Source: an uncultured Granulicatella sp. (GTDB lineage: Bacteria > Bacillota > Bacilli > Lactobacillales > Aerococcaceae). From it: a DNA stretch of 64,000 nt. The stretch is from positions 7,568-71,567 of the forward strand of contig NZ_CAUPXD010000003.1 in the NCBI RefSeq assembly GCF_963515095.1, given 5' to 3'. Of the stretch, positions 5,905-58,710 are shown in pieces. Positions within the stretch are counted from its first letter, which is position 1. The number at the start of each line of letters is the position of its first letter. The translations under genes and the position numbers were made by a program. A model generated the notes under the pieces. The model searched no databases, was not told the origin of the DNA, and worked only from the letters and a program-made list of their open reading frames with translations.

Positions 5905-5990
5905 GAGAGAACATTTGGGGTGCCTTTATGGCTGAGATGATACCCATTGAACCTGATGCAGTTCGTACTGTCGAAGGGAAATGATTCGCT
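5905..5990 (+). ncRNA. TPP riboswitch
   Basis: GGGGTGC..GCTGAGA..TACCC..GAACCTGAT.CAGT...ACTG.CG.AGGGA; upstream of a thiamine-salvage gene; terminator-like hairpin at about 6050-6100. Confidence 0.95.
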
Positions 5991-6132
5991 AATTATGTCT
6001 AATCCATAGGATAGATTAAGGAAAAAGACTTATATTTGAATAATCATCTAATATCCTCTTTTGTTTGCCTCATCATTTGGTAAATGAAAGAGGATTTTTG
6101 CAAAATATGGAATAGGAAAGGAATGGTTATAT

Positions 6133-6918: not shown

Positions 6919-6924
6919 GTTCAT

Positions 6925-7130
6925 GTAAATCGGTAGGTGAGACTACCATGGAGATACGGATGGCTACCGCAAAGTAGTGGAGACACTATTCGTTGGTTAG
7001 CAGTTCCTGTCGTGAAGGCAGAAACTAATGTCATTTCATTGCTCCATGATGTTAAAGCTTGGACGGGGAAATAAGAACTTTGTATTTTAAGGCATCTTGT
7101 TACGTCTAAGCACGGAACAAGATGTTTTTC
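6925..7130 (+). ncRNA. M-box (ykoK) Mg2+ riboswitch with terminator platform
   Basis: GGTAGGTGAG.CT.C..CATGGAG ... GCTCCATG..GTTAAAGCT..ACG pattern; terminator GCATCTTGT...ACAAGATGT-TTTT at about 7090-7130; upstream of a Mg transporter. Confidence 0.92.
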
Positions 7131-10155: not shown

Positions 10156-10250
10156 GTCTTGATTTCTATCAGCTTGACAACAAGTGATACTAATGAAACT
10201 AGTAAAGTCGCAAAAGAACACACCAATGTCAATGCTTCATAGACTGACAA
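10146..10250 (-). CDS. Holin-like type I toxin, 34 aa (MSVYEALTLVCSFATLLVSLVSLVVKLIEIKTKK)
   Basis: TTG start after AAAGGAGG; one TM helix and a basic tail; MSVYEAL N-terminus typical of the TxpA/Hol_Tox family. Confidence 0.85.
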   Translation of the reverse strand: MSVYEALTLVCSFATLLVSLVSLVVKLIEIKTKK

Positions 10251-10451
10251 AATACAACCTCCTTTCGATAGATTTGGAATAGATGCTCATAAGCATCACC
10301 TACCTTTATAAGAGATTGCCACCGCCTTAAAACTTTCTACGCGGAGAGTGTACCATAAACGAAATGAAAATAACAGTGAAATGTGTAAAAAATCACGTTG
10401 TTATAATAATATTCTTTTGATTATTTTTATTTGTGTTTCATTGAGACATTA

Positions 10452-12056: not shown

Positions 12057-12152
12057 TGCCGTTAGGCCATATGGCAATAGCGAACATATGAATCGAGTCA
12101 GGTCCGGAAGGAAGCAGCTATAAGTATCGTTCGTTATGTGCTGTATGTACAT
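12057..12152 (+). ncRNA. ffs: Small SRP RNA (4.5S)
   Basis: Domain IV TCAGGTCCGGAAGGAAGCAGC (12098-12118) within a long stem; terminator ACAGGCTGG...CCAGCCTGT-TTTT at 12163-12196. Confidence 0.95.
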
Positions 12153-16546: not shown

Positions 16547-17143
16547 ATGCAATATCCAGAACCAATTGCTCGATTAATGGATAGTTATATGAAACTTCCT
16601 GGAATCGGGGCGAAAACAGCAGCTCGTCTAGCTTTTTTCAGCATGGAAATGCCGGAAGAAGAAGTGATGAATTTTGCCAATGCACTCATTAGTTGTAAAC
16701 GAGATTTAACGATGTGTTCTGTTTGTGGGAATATTACGCAAGAAGATCCTTGTGAGATTTGCCAAGATGCTTCTAGAGATAGAACCAAAATACTAGTTGT
16801 TGAAGATAGTCGAGATGTGATGAGTTTAGAGAGAATGAAGGAATATAAAGGTTTGTACCATGTTCTTCATGGTGTTCTTTCTCCAATGGAAGGGACAGGA
16901 CCTGATGATATTAATGTGGCTTCTCTTATTCAGCGTCTTCAAGATCCTACTGTAGAAGAAGTGATTATTGCCACTAATGCAACTGCAGAAGGTGAAGCAA
17001 CTGCGATGTATTTATCTCGTTTAATTAAACCAGCTGGAATTAAAGTGACGCGTTTAGCGCATGGTCTTGCAGTTGGTAGTGATATTGAATATGCAGATGA
17101 AATGACTTTATTCAAAGCAATTGAAGGACGAAGAGAGCTGTAA
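16547..17143 (+). CDS. recR: Recombination mediator RecR
   Basis: [13 protein letters not shown]hH, C4 zinc finger, Toprim EGEATA. Confidence 0.98.
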
Positions 17144-17160
17144 TAATGTTATAAAATTAC

Positions 17161-17253
17161 GAATAGACTTCCCTTGTATAGTAGCAGGAGGACGCAAGTA
17201 GCCTCGCAAAAGCGAGTCTCATTGGACTAATGCTACTATGGGAAGTCTTTTTT
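17161..17253 (+). repeat. Structured intergenic repeat, copy A (short form)
   Basis: Core GGACGCAAGTAGCCTCGC-AAAA-GCGAGTCTCATTGG closed by TAGTAGCA/TGCTACTA and AGACTTCCC/GGGAAGTCT, then a T-run. Confidence 0.85.
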
Positions 17254-47620: not shown

Positions 47621-48910
47621 ATGATGGAGTTACAAACTTCAAAAGTCAACTTATTACTTGATGTGGATCAAAATCCACCTTTAGCCAAAGGCTTATTACT
47701 AAGCTTGCAACATGTGTTTGCGATGTTTGGGGCAACGATTTTAGTACCATTAATTTTAGGGATGCCTGTTTCTGTAGCATTATTTGCTTCAGGTTTAGGA
47801 ACTCTGATTTACATGGTAGCAACTCAATTTAAAGTGCCAGTGTACTTAGGTTCTTCATTTGCATTTATTTCAGCGATGGCATTTGCAATGAAACAAATGA
47901 ATGGAGATGTTTCAGCGGCTCAGTCAGGGGTTGTTCTTGTAGGTCTTGTTTATGTAATAGTAGCATTAGCGGTTAAATTAATTGGAACAAAATGGATTGA
48001 TCGTTTATTACCACCGATTGTCATTGGACCAATGATTATGGTAATTGGTTTAGGATTAGCAAATTCAGCCGTGACAAATGCAGGATTTATTAAAGATGGT
48101 ACAGTTCAACAAATAACAGTAGCGATTGTAACTTTCTTGATTACAGCATTTATTAATACAAAAGCTAAAGGATTTTTAAAAATTATTCCATTCTTATTCG
48201 GAATTATTGGAGGATATATTGTAGCTGTACTGTTTGGATTGGTTGATTTCACTCCAGTATTAGAAGCAGATTGGATTGCGATTCCGCAATTATATTTACC
48301 ATTTTCGACAAATGGATTTTTCAAAGAATATCATTGGTATTTTGGACCTGAAACTTGGGCAATCTTACCAGTTGCCGTTGTAACCATTGCAGAACATATT
48401 GGAGATCATACGGTTTTAAGTCAAATTTGTGGAAGACAATTTTTGAAAACACCGGGCTTACATCGTACATTAATTGGAGATGGTGTTGCGACTGCAGTTT
48501 CAGCATTTATGGGTGGTCCTGCGAATACAACTTATGGTGAGAATACCGGTGTTGTAGGGATGACAAGAATTGCTAGTGTTTCAGTGATTCGTAATGCAGC
48601 ATTATTTGCGATTGGGTTGAGTTTCCTTGGGAAGTTTACAGCGTTGATTTCTACTATTCCAAATGCAGTGCTTGGTGGGATGGCTATCTTACTATATGGA
48701 GTTATTGCAAGTAATGGTTTGAAAGTGTTAATTGAAAAGCAAGTAGATTTTAGAGAAGTGCGTAATTTGATTATTGCGAGTTCAATGTTAGTGTTAGGAT
48801 TAGGTGGAGCAATTTTAGAATTAGGTCCTGTGACATTGTCCGGTACATCATTATGTGCATTAGCAGGGGTTATTTTGAACCTAGTGTTGCCGTATGAAAA
48901 CAGAAAATGA
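47621..48910 (+). CDS. pyrP: Uracil permease (NCS2)
   Basis: QHVFAMFGAT, YLGSSFAF, EHIGD, NTTYGEN. Confidence 0.93.
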   Translation: MMELQTSKVNLLLDVDQNPPLAKGLLLSLQHVFAMFGATILVPLILGMPVSVALFASGLGTLIYMVATQFKVPVYLGSSFAFISAMAFAMKQMNGDVSAAQSGVVLVGLVYVIVALAVKLIGTKWIDRLLPPIVIGPMIMVIGLGLANSAVTNAGFIKDGTVQQITVAIVTFLITAFINTKAKGFLKIIPFLFGIIGGYIVAVLFGLVDFTPVLEADWIAIPQLYLPFSTNGFFKEYHWYFGPETWAILPVAVVTIAEHIGDHTVLSQICGRQFLKTPGLHRTLIGDGVATAVSAFMGGPANTTYGENTGVVGMTRIASVSVIRNAALFAIGLSFLGKFTALISTIPNAVLGGMAILLYGVIASNGLKVLIEKQVDFREVRNLIIASSMLVLGLGGAILELGPVTLSGTSLCALAGVILNLVLPYENRK

Positions 48911-49077
48911 TTTTTATGATGTAGTAAGGGACGGAAGCAGCCTCGCAAAAAAGCGAGTCTCATTCCTAAAATTCGAGCCTAAGGTCTCGAATTTTCCCAG
49001 CAATATAAGCCACAAATGGAGTGGCTTATATTGCTAATGCAGCATCAAAAAATCATTTTCTGTTTTCTACTTTTTTT
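48896..49077 (+). repeat. Structured intergenic repeat, copy B (full form)
   Basis: Outer stem GAAAACAGAAAATGATTTTT/AAAAATCATTTTCTGTTTTC enclosing three hairpins; T-run. Confidence 0.9.
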
Positions 49078-49109
49078 GATGAGGGATGTATATTAGGATG
49101 ATTTACGTA

Positions 49110-49162
49110 ATATAGCGAAGGACGCCAGCAGCTTCGCAAAAGCGAATCTCATGGCTAAAAAT
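49110..49162 (+). repeat. Structured intergenic repeat, copy C (3'-truncated)
   Basis: GGACGCCAGCAGCTTCGC-AAAA-GCGAATCTCATGGCTAAAAAT; identical to copy D except for the loop. Confidence 0.88.
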
Positions 49163-56540: not shown

Positions 56541-57179
56541 ATGAATCGGGAAATGTTGTTATTAGAACCAATCTATCAATGGCTAGAACAGTTATTGGAC
56601 GGACGAATAAATCATTTCCCTTTGATTCGTCTTTTAATGAATAGTATCGATCATGCTCTCATATTCTTTATTGGATGGCTGGGAGTATGGTCGATTTCTC
56701 TCTTATTTAGAAAATATCACAAACAAAAGATTGATTGGAAATTAGAGAGTTATCTTCATTTGTTTATTTTTTATTTACTCGTATTATTAAATATTACGAT
56801 TTTTCGACAATCGAGTATTTTTAATCTAATGAGGATCTCACCACGACCTTTGCAAGACATTTATTGGATACCTTTTGTAGATAGTGTAAAACTATTTACA
56901 CATGGATCACTATTTGCAGCATATTATAATGTATTTGGGAATATTATTTGGTTTATGCCAATGGGTTTATTTTGTGGGATTTTATTAAAGGAGAAAAGTC
57001 ATTATAAACTATCTTTTTGGGCTGGTTTATCTATCTCTCTTATAATAGAAATTAGTCAATGGTTATTTTCAACAGGTGTCACTCATATTGATGATGTGAT
57101 TTGTAATGCGTTGGGAAGTGTTTTGGGATATTGGTGTTATAAAAAATATCAAGAAAGAAAAAGGAGATTAGAATTATGA
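56541..57179 (+). CDS. VanZ family membrane protein
   Basis: GNIIWFMPMG, IEISQ, IDDVICNALG. Confidence 0.9.
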   Translation: MNREMLLLEPIYQWLEQLLDGRINHFPLIRLLMNSIDHALIFFIGWLGVWSISLLFRKYHKQKIDWKLESYLHLFIFYLLVLLNITIFRQSSIFNLMRISPRPLQDIYWIPFVDSVKLFTHGSLFAAYYNVFGNIIWFMPMGLFCGILLKEKSHYKLSFWAGLSISLIIEISQWLFSTGVTHIDDVICNALGSVLGYWCYKKYQERKRRLEL

Positions 57180-58360
57180 AAGAAATCATTTTAAAAACGA
57201 AAGCAGCTAAATTAGTGAAAAAAGGGTCTCCTTTATTAAATCAAGAGGATTTAGCAAAAACTCTCGAAGCAAAAGAAGGCGAATGTGTTCGTGTTTGTGA
57301 TGAAAAGAAAGAATTTTTAGCAATGGCTTATGTAGGGTTTCAACATAAAGGGATTGGATGGGTTTATTCTAAAAAAGATGGTGAAAAATTAACTCCTCAA
57401 TTTATAAAAGGAATCTTCCAAAAGGCAGCACAAAAACGTTCTTCTTTACTGATGGATGAAAGTACGACAGCTTTTCGTCTATTTAATGGAGAAGGAGATG
57501 GATTAGGTGGAATTACGATTGATTGGTATGATGGATTTGTAGTAGTTTCATGGTATAGTGCAGGAATTTATCAATGGAAAGAGTTGATAGTAGAACAACT
57601 ACAAGAAGCAATTCCAAGTATCCGAGGTATTTATGAAAAAATTCGTTATGCTTCAAAAGATAAATTACCGGAAAGTCAATTTGTAAGAGGAGTGAAGGCG
57701 AGTGAGCCACTGATTGTTCAAGAAGAAGGGGTTCGTTATGCAACGTATCTTGATGAAGGATTGATGACAGGTATCTTTTTAGATCAACGTGAAGTTCGTA
57801 CGTTGTTAAGAGATGACTATAGTGCTGGGAAAACCATTTTGAATTTATTTAGTTATACAGGAGCGTTTTCTGTAGCTGCAGCAATGGGTGGTGCGGTTCA
57901 AACAACGAGTGTGGATGTTGCCAATCGAAGTTTAGAGAAGACTAGGGAACAATTCGAGGCAAATGGAATTAATGTATCTGAGCAAAAGATTTATGTAATG
58001 GATGTGTTTGATTATATTAAATATGCAGCAAAGAAGGCTTTAACGTTTGATACGATTGTCTTAGATCCTCCTAGTTTTGCTCGTACAAAGAAGAGAACTT
58101 TTTCGGTTGCGAAGGATTATGCAGGGTTAGTAGAGCAATTAGTTCCGTTAACGGCTAAGAAGGGGACTTTAATTTTGTCGACGAATGCGGCCAATGTTTC
58201 AGAGAAGCAATTTTTAGAGATGATTCATAAGGGGCTTCGCTCTTCTGGAAGAAGGTATCGTATAGCGCACCAGAAGAAATTGCCGATGGATTTTCCAGTG
58301 GCACCACATACACCGTTGAGTGATTATTTGAAGGTGATTTTTATAGAAATGGATGTGTAG
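57176..58360 (+). CDS. RlmI/RlmK-like class I SAM rRNA methyltransferase
   Basis: NGEGDG, TGIFLDQRE, LNLFSYTGAFS, LDPPSF. Confidence 0.92.
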   Translation: MKEIILKTKAAKLVKKGSPLLNQEDLAKTLEAKEGECVRVCDEKKEFLAMAYVGFQHKGIGWVYSKKDGEKLTPQFIKGIFQKAAQKRSSLLMDESTTAFRLFNGEGDGLGGITIDWYDGFVVVSWYSAGIYQWKELIVEQLQEAIPSIRGIYEKIRYASKDKLPESQFVRGVKASEPLIVQEEGVRYATYLDEGLMTGIFLDQREVRTLLRDDYSAGKTILNLFSYTGAFSVAAAMGGAVQTTSVDVANRSLEKTREQFEANGINVSEQKIYVMDVFDYIKYAAKKALTFDTIVLDPPSFARTKKRTFSVAKDYAGLVEQLVPLTAKKGTLILSTNAANVSEKQFLEMIHKGLRSSGRRYRIAHQKKLPMDFPVAPHTPLSDYLKVIFIEMDV

Positions 58361-58525
58361 GAATAGACTTCCTAATTTAGTAGTAATGGACGCCAGCAGC
58401 TTCGCTATCGCGAATCTCATGGCTAAAAATCGAGCCTAGGTCTCGATTTTTCCAGTAATAGAAGCCACAAGCATTGTGGCTTCTATTACCGATACTACTA
58501 CGGGAAGTCAATTCCTACTTTTTTT
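58357..58525 (+). repeat. Structured intergenic repeat, copy D (full form)
   Basis: Outer stem GTAGGAATAGACTTCC/GGAAGTCAATTCCTAC and TAGTAGTA/TACTACTA enclosing three hairpins; T-run. Confidence 0.9.
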
Positions 58526-58710
58526 ATATGGGGGAAATTGCGTAAAGGTATGGGATTTCCTGATGTAGTATAAAAGACAAGTTTATGGAAATAAGAAATC
58601 TATCTTTCATCAAAATGATGGATTTCACAAAATGTAAGCGTTAAGTTGTCAGGAATTAAAAAACAATTAAAAAAAGTTTAAAAATTTTTCAAAAAAATTT
58701 AAAAAAACAA

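Follow-up and report, generated by a model that had tools for sequence, protein, structure and literature searches.

The interspersed repeats BOX, RUP and SPRITE are nearly confined to Streptococcus pneumoniae and S. mitis, with BOX in more than 100 copies, and S. suis has boxE and boxF modules of 115 and 133 nt (PMC3049150). What defines REP sequences is a hairpin of 20-40 bp with an unpaired tag, GTAG or CGTC, at its foot (PMC3733652). Among insertion sequences, IS1272 deletes its target hairpin on insertion (PMC4923244), the left target guide of the IS110 bridge RNA equals the target (PMC11208160), and targeting of repeats by IS110 elements is already known (PMC11208160; bioRxiv 10.64898/2026.03.19.712850). 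SSRC8 is a small RNA of S. pyogenes, and its segment corresponding to hairpins H1-H2 of the repeat analysed below is found in many streptococci (PMC3675131, Table 4).

The gene-end repeat described here is a real and apparently undescribed composite repeat, whose component parts are of known kinds and in which the breadth and constancy of the core are the point of interest. Like BOX, RUP and SPRITE it is small, interspersed, structured, old and slow-moving; it is modular like BOX, and terminator-like and near 3' ends like SPRITE. It differs from this group in distribution and copy number, and forms a nested junction in place of an 18-bp stem with a T tract (PMC3049150). With REP/BIME it shares hundreds of palindromic copies at stop codons and dimers (PMC11208160, PMC3733652), but it lacks both a RAYT partner and, at the position that defines REP, the GTAG or CGTC tag. 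One streptococcal subfamily has IS1182 ends and is aimed at terminators, as in IS1272/TnSha1, and a second IS1182 of the window's genus likewise deletes terminator hairpins; in contrast, the streptococcal unit duplicates the hairpin that IS1272 deletes (PMC4923244). Unlike IS1182 MITEs, the window copies are without any ends, and the passenger fold is conserved. The IS110 elements landing in the repeat recall IS621 in their long left end with a guide-like stretch equal to the left target, but only the left target guide was found here and the core is an A-run, not CT (PMC11208160). Finally, model positions about 150-210 of Rfam SSRC8_2 (RF02616) correspond to H1-H2 on the opposite strand, but SSRC8 is described as a single sRNA and not as a repeat, and the model represents neither the closing stem nor H3 as such (PMC3675131).

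We analysed a window of 64,000 nucleotides, the whole stretch of DNA considered here, from a genome of 1.78 Mb (G000) that, judging by its sequence, probably belongs to the Granulicatella elegans clade; the flanks of the copy D site are 99-100% identical to a G. elegans record. The original prediction had placed four same-orientation copies behind genes of the window, and all four (copies A-D) were present where it had put them. Its labels for the neighbouring genes agree with Pfam (RecR, uracil/xanthine permease, SAM methyltransferase with a PUA domain). The features are as follows.

16547-17143, + strand: recR, upstream of copy A.
17160-17253, + strand: copy A after recR, without H2 and H3 (local deletion).
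47621-48910, + strand: pyrP-type uracil permease gene, its 3' end built into the closing stem of copy B.
48896-49067, + strand: copy B, full length (closing stem P1, junction stem P2, H1-H3), from its 127-bit score and folding.
48929-48966, + strand: GGACG junction strand and H1 with the conserved GC/CA 2x2 loop, from the alignment.
48968-48995, + strand: H2 with the conserved bulged-T tip GAGCC-loop-GGTCTC, from the alignment; further composite repeats in the family and the order have this tip too.
48992-48995, + strand: IS110 insertion point in the copy B orthologue of genome G035, T4 core duplicated (flanks L341 and L350).
49000-49034, + strand: H3, variable in sequence and fixed in pairing (both-side changes in 13 of 13 pairs).
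49053-49067: inverted copy of the last five pyrP codons (stop included), with which it pairs to form the outer 15 bp of P1 of copy B.
49068-49095, + strand: T-run and tandem linker with a GAGRG..GT motif (49081-49089).
49096-49161, + strand: copy C (34 bits), a tandem copy downstream of copy B of which a left-arm relic, GGACG, H1 and the beginning of H2 are left.
57176-58360, + strand: RlmI-like SAM methyltransferase gene, upstream of copy D.
58357-58526, + strand: copy D after the methyltransferase gene, full length with T-run, 142 bits.
58535-58575, + strand: probable worn relic of a second tandem copy after copy D.

The repeat is a composite palindrome of about 150 bp with a fixed nested-junction fold, in which a closing stem of about 30 bp (P1) encloses a GGA/TCC stem (P2) and the hairpins H1, H2 and H3. 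The outer part of P1 is locus-specific, and P1 reaches into the stop codon or the gene in 15 of 62 sense copies; the stem of copy D overlaps the methyltransferase stop codon. The GGAC predicted ahead of H1 is there, its GGA pairing with the TCC after H2 and so creating the nested junction. The GYAGC/TCTCA motif of H1 is a conserved internal loop as claimed but not a fully unpaired one, since the AG of GYAGC pairs with CT; what stays unpaired is a 2x2 GC/CA loop, kept in 65/68 Granulicatella and 15/15 streptococcal copies, together with a C.T mismatch. The six compensatory pairs between copies B and D proved exact (two at the base of H1, one at its top, one in H2 and two in H3).

Measured against shuffled sequences, copy B folds with a z-score of -11.2 as RNA and -12.4 as DNA, copy D with -10.3 and copy A with -6.6, while copy C alone (-1.4) shows no significance because only H1 and a left-arm relic remain. 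Copy A lacks H2 and H3 and keeps its closing stem, as had been observed; because the same recR site carries a full-length copy in a relative (L094), copy A is a local deletion. The site of copy D carries two full copies in genome G009, and the stretch downstream of copy D in the window would then be what is left of a second one. The hairpins may resemble those of E. coli REP, and the bulged A on the reverse strand may be MS2-operator-like. Elsewhere in the window, Rfam families comprise the glmS ribozyme, the TPP and M-box riboswitches, rli28 and SRP RNA (774-923, 5906-5996, 6922-7077, 10185-10362 and 12066-12152).

Four copies had been taken for the whole family, whereas the genome holds about 200. 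A profile built from 37 seed copies gave 208 matches in G000, and 206 copies in 145 clusters after self-reverse overlaps were dropped; 116 of them are full length, and the other 90 often have H2 and H3 deleted. With ORFs called by script, 112 of 133 single-orientation clusters lie on the same strand after a gene end, at a median distance of about 10 nt from the stop codon. Between co-directional genes, sense clusters outnumber antisense ones by 62 to 10 (p 3e-10), and all 12 mixed-orientation clusters are arranged tail to tail. On average 6 of the 9 nt after the stem are T, and a simple terminator scan left copy B unflagged. Tandem pairs run full-short (29), full-full (11) or short-short (9) and never short-full (0); since their P1 arms are more alike than those of random pairs (0.50 vs 0.32), these pairs are local duplications. 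The copy transcribed with the gene would thus seem to be the one under selection. Genome comparison shows deletion of H2 and H3, local tandem duplication and block exchange of whole hairpins as the present modes of change. The repeat explains many contig breaks and may confound the annotation of sRNAs and terminators. One 171-aa gene (L415, G000:C18:14108-14428), flanked by a P1-like left arm and a P1-only hairpin, matches the N-terminal part of IS1182 weakly and may be a transposase fragment that has been domesticated; a similar match exists in G001.

Among relatives, BLAST located the repeat in 3/18 other genomes of the window's genus and in 0/12 of its order, and a pattern scan of named genomes returned at least 128 matching stretches. 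The 80 titles listed were all Granulicatella (including G. elegans ATCC 700633) except two Streptococcus records and two probably misbinned MAG contigs. Matches in Carnobacterium and Vagococcus MAGs were near-identical to G000 loci and were set aside as probable binning errors. A covariance model scored 85-107 bits in 19/19 genomes of a further genus (g4), weakly in four others and in 0/4 further genomes of the window's genus. We infer that g4 is Streptococcus, given its Rfam Srn266 and SSRC8_2 matches and named Streptococcus records that score alike. Of 151 g4 genomes, 117 contain the exact H1-H2 pattern, mostly 1-5 times per genome and at most 22 times, with no control matches. The repeat is thus present in most sampled streptococcal genomes, and seems to have been noticed earlier only as a fragment of one sRNA. 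Streptococcal copies keep the whole architecture, and single ones persist at the same genes across species; many have other flanks, lying antisense inside operons. Conserved copies at L246, L253, L256 and L258-L261 are antisense and directly before start codons, the genes downstream being, by eye, purE-, purF-, pheT-, asnS- and yhbY-like, and a GCTCGC-type tandem motif lies beyond the stem of these start-codon copies. One streptococcal copy used as query had no match in phage and plasmid collections.

The extensive covariation claimed for the repeat is borne out by the larger alignment. This alignment comprised 68 of 71 non-redundant full-length copies (from 124), three copies with a partly deleted H3 being left out. 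In these 68 copies, 41 of 54 pairs showed changes on both sides and 94.5% of cells paired. The covariation score was 0.421, compared with 0.143 in shuffles and no more than 0.094 in slid controls. Within H2, the three pairs that vary were Watson-Crick in 318/318 cases, with nine sequence types. Taken alone, on the other hand, the covariation is no proof of an RNA function, the pairs being almost purely Watson-Crick and changing in blocks between relatives. Counts of G.T and A.C in H1-H3 (15 vs 18 in Granulicatella copies) indicate no wobble preference on either strand, and those of 15 streptococcal copies were 6 vs 10; P1 alone leans to G.T (54 vs 29), and a strand-symmetric method gave 88 vs 59 overall toward G.T (p 0.02).

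Double and single changes were counted in 75 orthologous pairs at 42 sites with 95% identical flanks, the genomes being related and some tandem-array pairs mis-set; the ratios were 28:3 in H1, 49:5 in H2 and 29:15 in H3. Such an excess of double over single changes is the reverse of what point mutation gives, and therefore whole hairpins are exchanged or copied from arm to arm. The fold is real and kept, and can be read as DNA or RNA. Very strong covariation can arise from block conversion among repeats, which calls for caution.

The copies of G000 look old and fixed from comparison with related genomes. Of 128 loci from other genomes, 66 could be mapped by both flanks, and G000 was filled in 65 of them, the single apparent empty site being a deletion relic. 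Against the single-contig genome G009, nine clusters kept the core in six cases, left only a P1 relic in two and were deleted with a flank in one. No clean pre-insertion site was thus found in these 66 and 9 site comparisons. Direct repeats were not found around the copies of G000 (at most 8 nt in 21 of 22 singles), nor IS1182-like ends at first or single copies. An end-like linker motif occurred in 18/35 later tandem copies vs 12/111 first or single copies (background about 12%). The copies of G000 are framed by an A-rich flank on one side and a T-rich flank on the other. Within the window's clade the presence/absence check thus offered no clean empty site, no ends and no duplication.

In streptococci, by contrast, the comparison of filled and empty sites yielded two clean pairs, with 271 and 266 bp gained, and at one site 10 of 19 genomes were filled and 9 empty. 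The streptococcal insert follows a terminator hairpin, and the whole hairpin recurs after the insert. The unit so gained is non-autonomous, measures about 245-260 bp and holds the folded core inside IS1182 ends; among 19 streptococcal copies examined, five had both ends and the duplication, and in 11 the left end stood directly after a hairpin. A hairpin-duplicating subtype of IS1182 is reportedly listed in a 2015 review by Siguier. One IS1182 element, in genome G021 (431 bits, cut-off 270), has the same left end as the streptococcal unit, a matching right end and a perfect 25-bp hairpin duplication, and its transposase gene, in this one partner copy examined, contains two in-frame stops. An IS1182 transposase is a candidate for mobilising the streptococcal units in trans. 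For BOX and SPRITE a tie to a named transposase family is still only a proposal, whereas the streptococcal units give this structured intergenic repeat a direct and testable one.

Shared ends and the duplication at filled versus empty sites put the streptococcal subfamily in the class of IS1182-type MITEs, whereas in the window copies terminal inverted repeats matching IS1182 were not found. The idea of a non-autonomous mobile element serving as a 3' end is accordingly supported for the family, but the copies of G000 themselves show only the sense position at stop codons and the T-run. Streptococcal-type ends gave only scattered loose matches in G000, away from the repeats, and the hairpin-duplicating IS1182 of the G021 type was not found there. 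An internally deleted derivative of this element exists in G013, of the window's genus, with no duplication visible, and IS1182 exceeded the cut-off in only 6 of 40 genomes tested. A second, different IS1182 has 12 full copies in G009 (L403, L419, L430-L439) and ends at 10 places in G000, where it is mostly unassembled at contig ends. Of six sites of this element that could be mapped, five have it in place of a terminator hairpin, and at one further site it has taken the place of H2 of the gene-end repeat. Hairpin replacement would offer a way to insert without any duplication and within an A-run/T-run frame such as surrounds the G000 copies. Two other loci involve related structures. At L354 a different repeat, also with IS1182-like ends, has inserted at a terminator foot, next to the gene that has the L351 insertion. 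At L424 (G051:C40) the left end of another insertion sequence contains a full core; this element has 25-bp inverted repeats, and its transposase gene follows shortly after the core.

On balance, we lean towards a composite repeat that was spread by IS1182-type transposition and is now a fixed gene-end structure and a landing site for insertion sequences. In one streptococcal subfamily the core travels as the passenger of an IS1182-ended element, which enters at the 3' foot of an intrinsic terminator and leaves the terminator hairpin in two copies. The ancestor of the clade may have received the core at about 145 gene ends in an older burst. The transposase behind that burst would have been of IS1182 type and aimed at hairpins, perhaps like that of IS1272, whose insertion removes the target hairpin and makes no duplication. 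The copies, now fixed, change, as genome comparison shows, by internal deletion, local tandem duplication and block hairpin exchange. The gene-proximal sense copy would act as a replacement for the terminator and shield the 3' end of the mRNA, which would place its pairing under selection. Finally, the pattern of insertions suggests that the repeat is a safe landing site, for IS110 at the H2/H3 junction and for the second IS1182 at hairpins. A terminator role does not account for the antisense streptococcal copies inside operons. Moreover, to our knowledge the passenger fold of a MITE is not normally conserved across two families, so that selection on the core is only partly accounted for.

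A rather unlikely alternative is that the core is a functional structured nucleic acid read by a host factor through the bulged tip of H2 and the GC/CA loop of H1, with transposons only as carriers; an RNA-binding protein, an RNase and a DNA-structure-binding protein are the candidate factors. In both genera the bulged T, the GC/CA loop and the junction bases stay the same next to pairs that covary, and single streptococcal copies last at the same genes across species, all of which speaks for a reader of the core. The absence of a wobble signature in H1-H3 on either strand speaks against it, as does the frequent loss of H2 and H3 from the copies that are not full length, and short motifs can stay uniform through block conversion even if nothing binds them.

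The H2 tip favours the host factor further, being the shared part, or hub, of otherwise unrelated composite repeats in the genus and the family. Four other genomes of the genus have 27-151 copies of the tip, and several genomes of the same family have 18-54. The different long composite repeats built on it (L160-L162, L308-L319, L321, L326, L329, L333) reach up to 151 copies in G037 and have no Rfam match. In addition, at five loci of another family, f2 (L335, L336, L337, L338, L267), the tip occurs once, on top of the rpmF terminator, with changing stems; it is 13 nt long there and on the reverse strand, and 23 of 25 f2 genomes have one to four tip matches. The ribosomal protein L32 gene (rpmF) was not found in the whole G000 assembly, from which it may be missing. 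Seen this way, the core could be an unrecognised functional element of streptococci and their relatives, recruited by several unrelated repeat families and by IS1182 ends because with it an insertion at a gene end does no harm or is of use, though we think this rather unlikely. If true, the repeat would be the hub of three layers, spread by IS1182, used by the host and tracked by IS110, which retunes its guide to the variants.

A REP/BIME-type family spread by an HUH nuclease (RAYT/IS200-like) that reads bulged DNA hairpins is a quite unlikely alternative, although strict Watson-Crick stems, fixed bulges, tail-to-tail dimers (12/12 mixed clusters), the stop-codon position and targeting by IS110 do recall REP/BIME (PMC3733652, PMC11208160). 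The unpaired tag that defines REP was not found: the GTAG of the repeat is base-paired as part of the closing stem, and the GACG ahead of H1 has the opposite polarity. Nor was an HUH Y1 gene flanked by gene-end repeats found. The link to RAYT/IS200 was rejected: the sole Y1 gene of G000 belongs to an ordinary, intact IS200 with its own hairpins (L011, G000:C2:105757-106113). Y1 genes are absent from three carriers tested, one of them a single-contig genome. In streptococci, a Y1 gene is present in 4/15 high-copy genomes vs 84/136 others, and 0/30 IS200 loci have the repeat. One decayed IS200 does lie directly after a copy in G035 (L307), but the insertions seen have DDE-type ends and duplications. 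The linked HUH/IS200-like transposase that had been envisaged thus finds no support.

Even less probable is membership in a repeat already described, such as the S. suis BOX-type E/F modules or an enterococcal EFAR-like element. The modular stem-loop build is similar, boxE and boxF being 115 and 133 nt long (PMC3049150). Against this, BOX, RUP and SPRITE are nearly confined to two species (PMC3049150), whereas the core occurs in 117/151 genomes with no more than 22 exact matches in each. The remark that the repeat is not BOX fits the copy number and distribution compared here. BLAST gave no homologue of the SSRC8 segment over H1-H2 in either S. suis BM407 or S. pneumoniae CGSP14 (PMC3675131, Table 4). 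Rfam at gathering level had no family on the gene-end repeats of the window, nor any at threshold on the other copies, streptococcal loci included. SSRC8_2 scored 39.8 bits on copy B, 50.3 at best in G000 (62 sub-threshold matches) and up to 70.2 at streptococcal loci, its gathering score of 72 being reached nowhere tested.

Six H2-tip motifs occurred in no searchable paper, and a literature search covering journals outside subscription returned no description of the family. The accessible parts of PMC2828477, PMC2267715, PMC3184786, PMC3733652, PMC6212727, PMC10969869 and bioRxiv 2024.01.18.576219 name no such family. A self-cleaving or otherwise catalytic mobile RNA, as also proposed, is scarcely credible: the multi-way junction with invariant unpaired bases would suit it, but no known ribozyme family matched at gathering or E-value level, hairpin loops are variable, neither a pseudoknot nor a wobble signature was seen, and both orientations occur in transcribed positions.

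The repeat is also a target for other elements, among them an IS110 element. The IS110 transposase has the Pfam domains PF01548 and PF02371 (DEDD plus IS116), its left end is long, and its insertion point is fixed between H2 and H3. All 12 IS110 junctions in G000 lie within the gene-end repeat, as do those of the IS110 copies in G035, G001 and G002 and of four near-identical metagenome copies among the 80 relatives listed. In G035 the copy B orthologue is split, its halves lying beside different IS110 copies in the scaffold; flank L341 ends at window position 48995 and flank L350 starts at 48992.

The left end of the element contains a 9-mer that reads TCAGGAAAA in G000, TCGGGAAAA in G035 and TAGGTAAAA in G002. 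The targets that the element occupies change in step with it, their ends being AGGAAAA, GGGAAAA and GGTAAAA, respectively; one G000 copy (C6) has a one-base mismatch. Since the 9-mer tracks its targets in three genomes, it behaves as the left-target-guide rule of bridge RNAs predicts and is probably the left target guide. A 12-row alignment of left ends did not identify the right target guide or either donor guide. The three natural guide variants, each fitting the repeat variant it occupies, make up a test set for bridge-RNA retargeting. In six more distant IS110 relatives the 9-mer is TAYAAAAAA and the targets lie outside the gene-end repeat, four of these six targets matching TAYAAAAAA at 8 of 9 letters.
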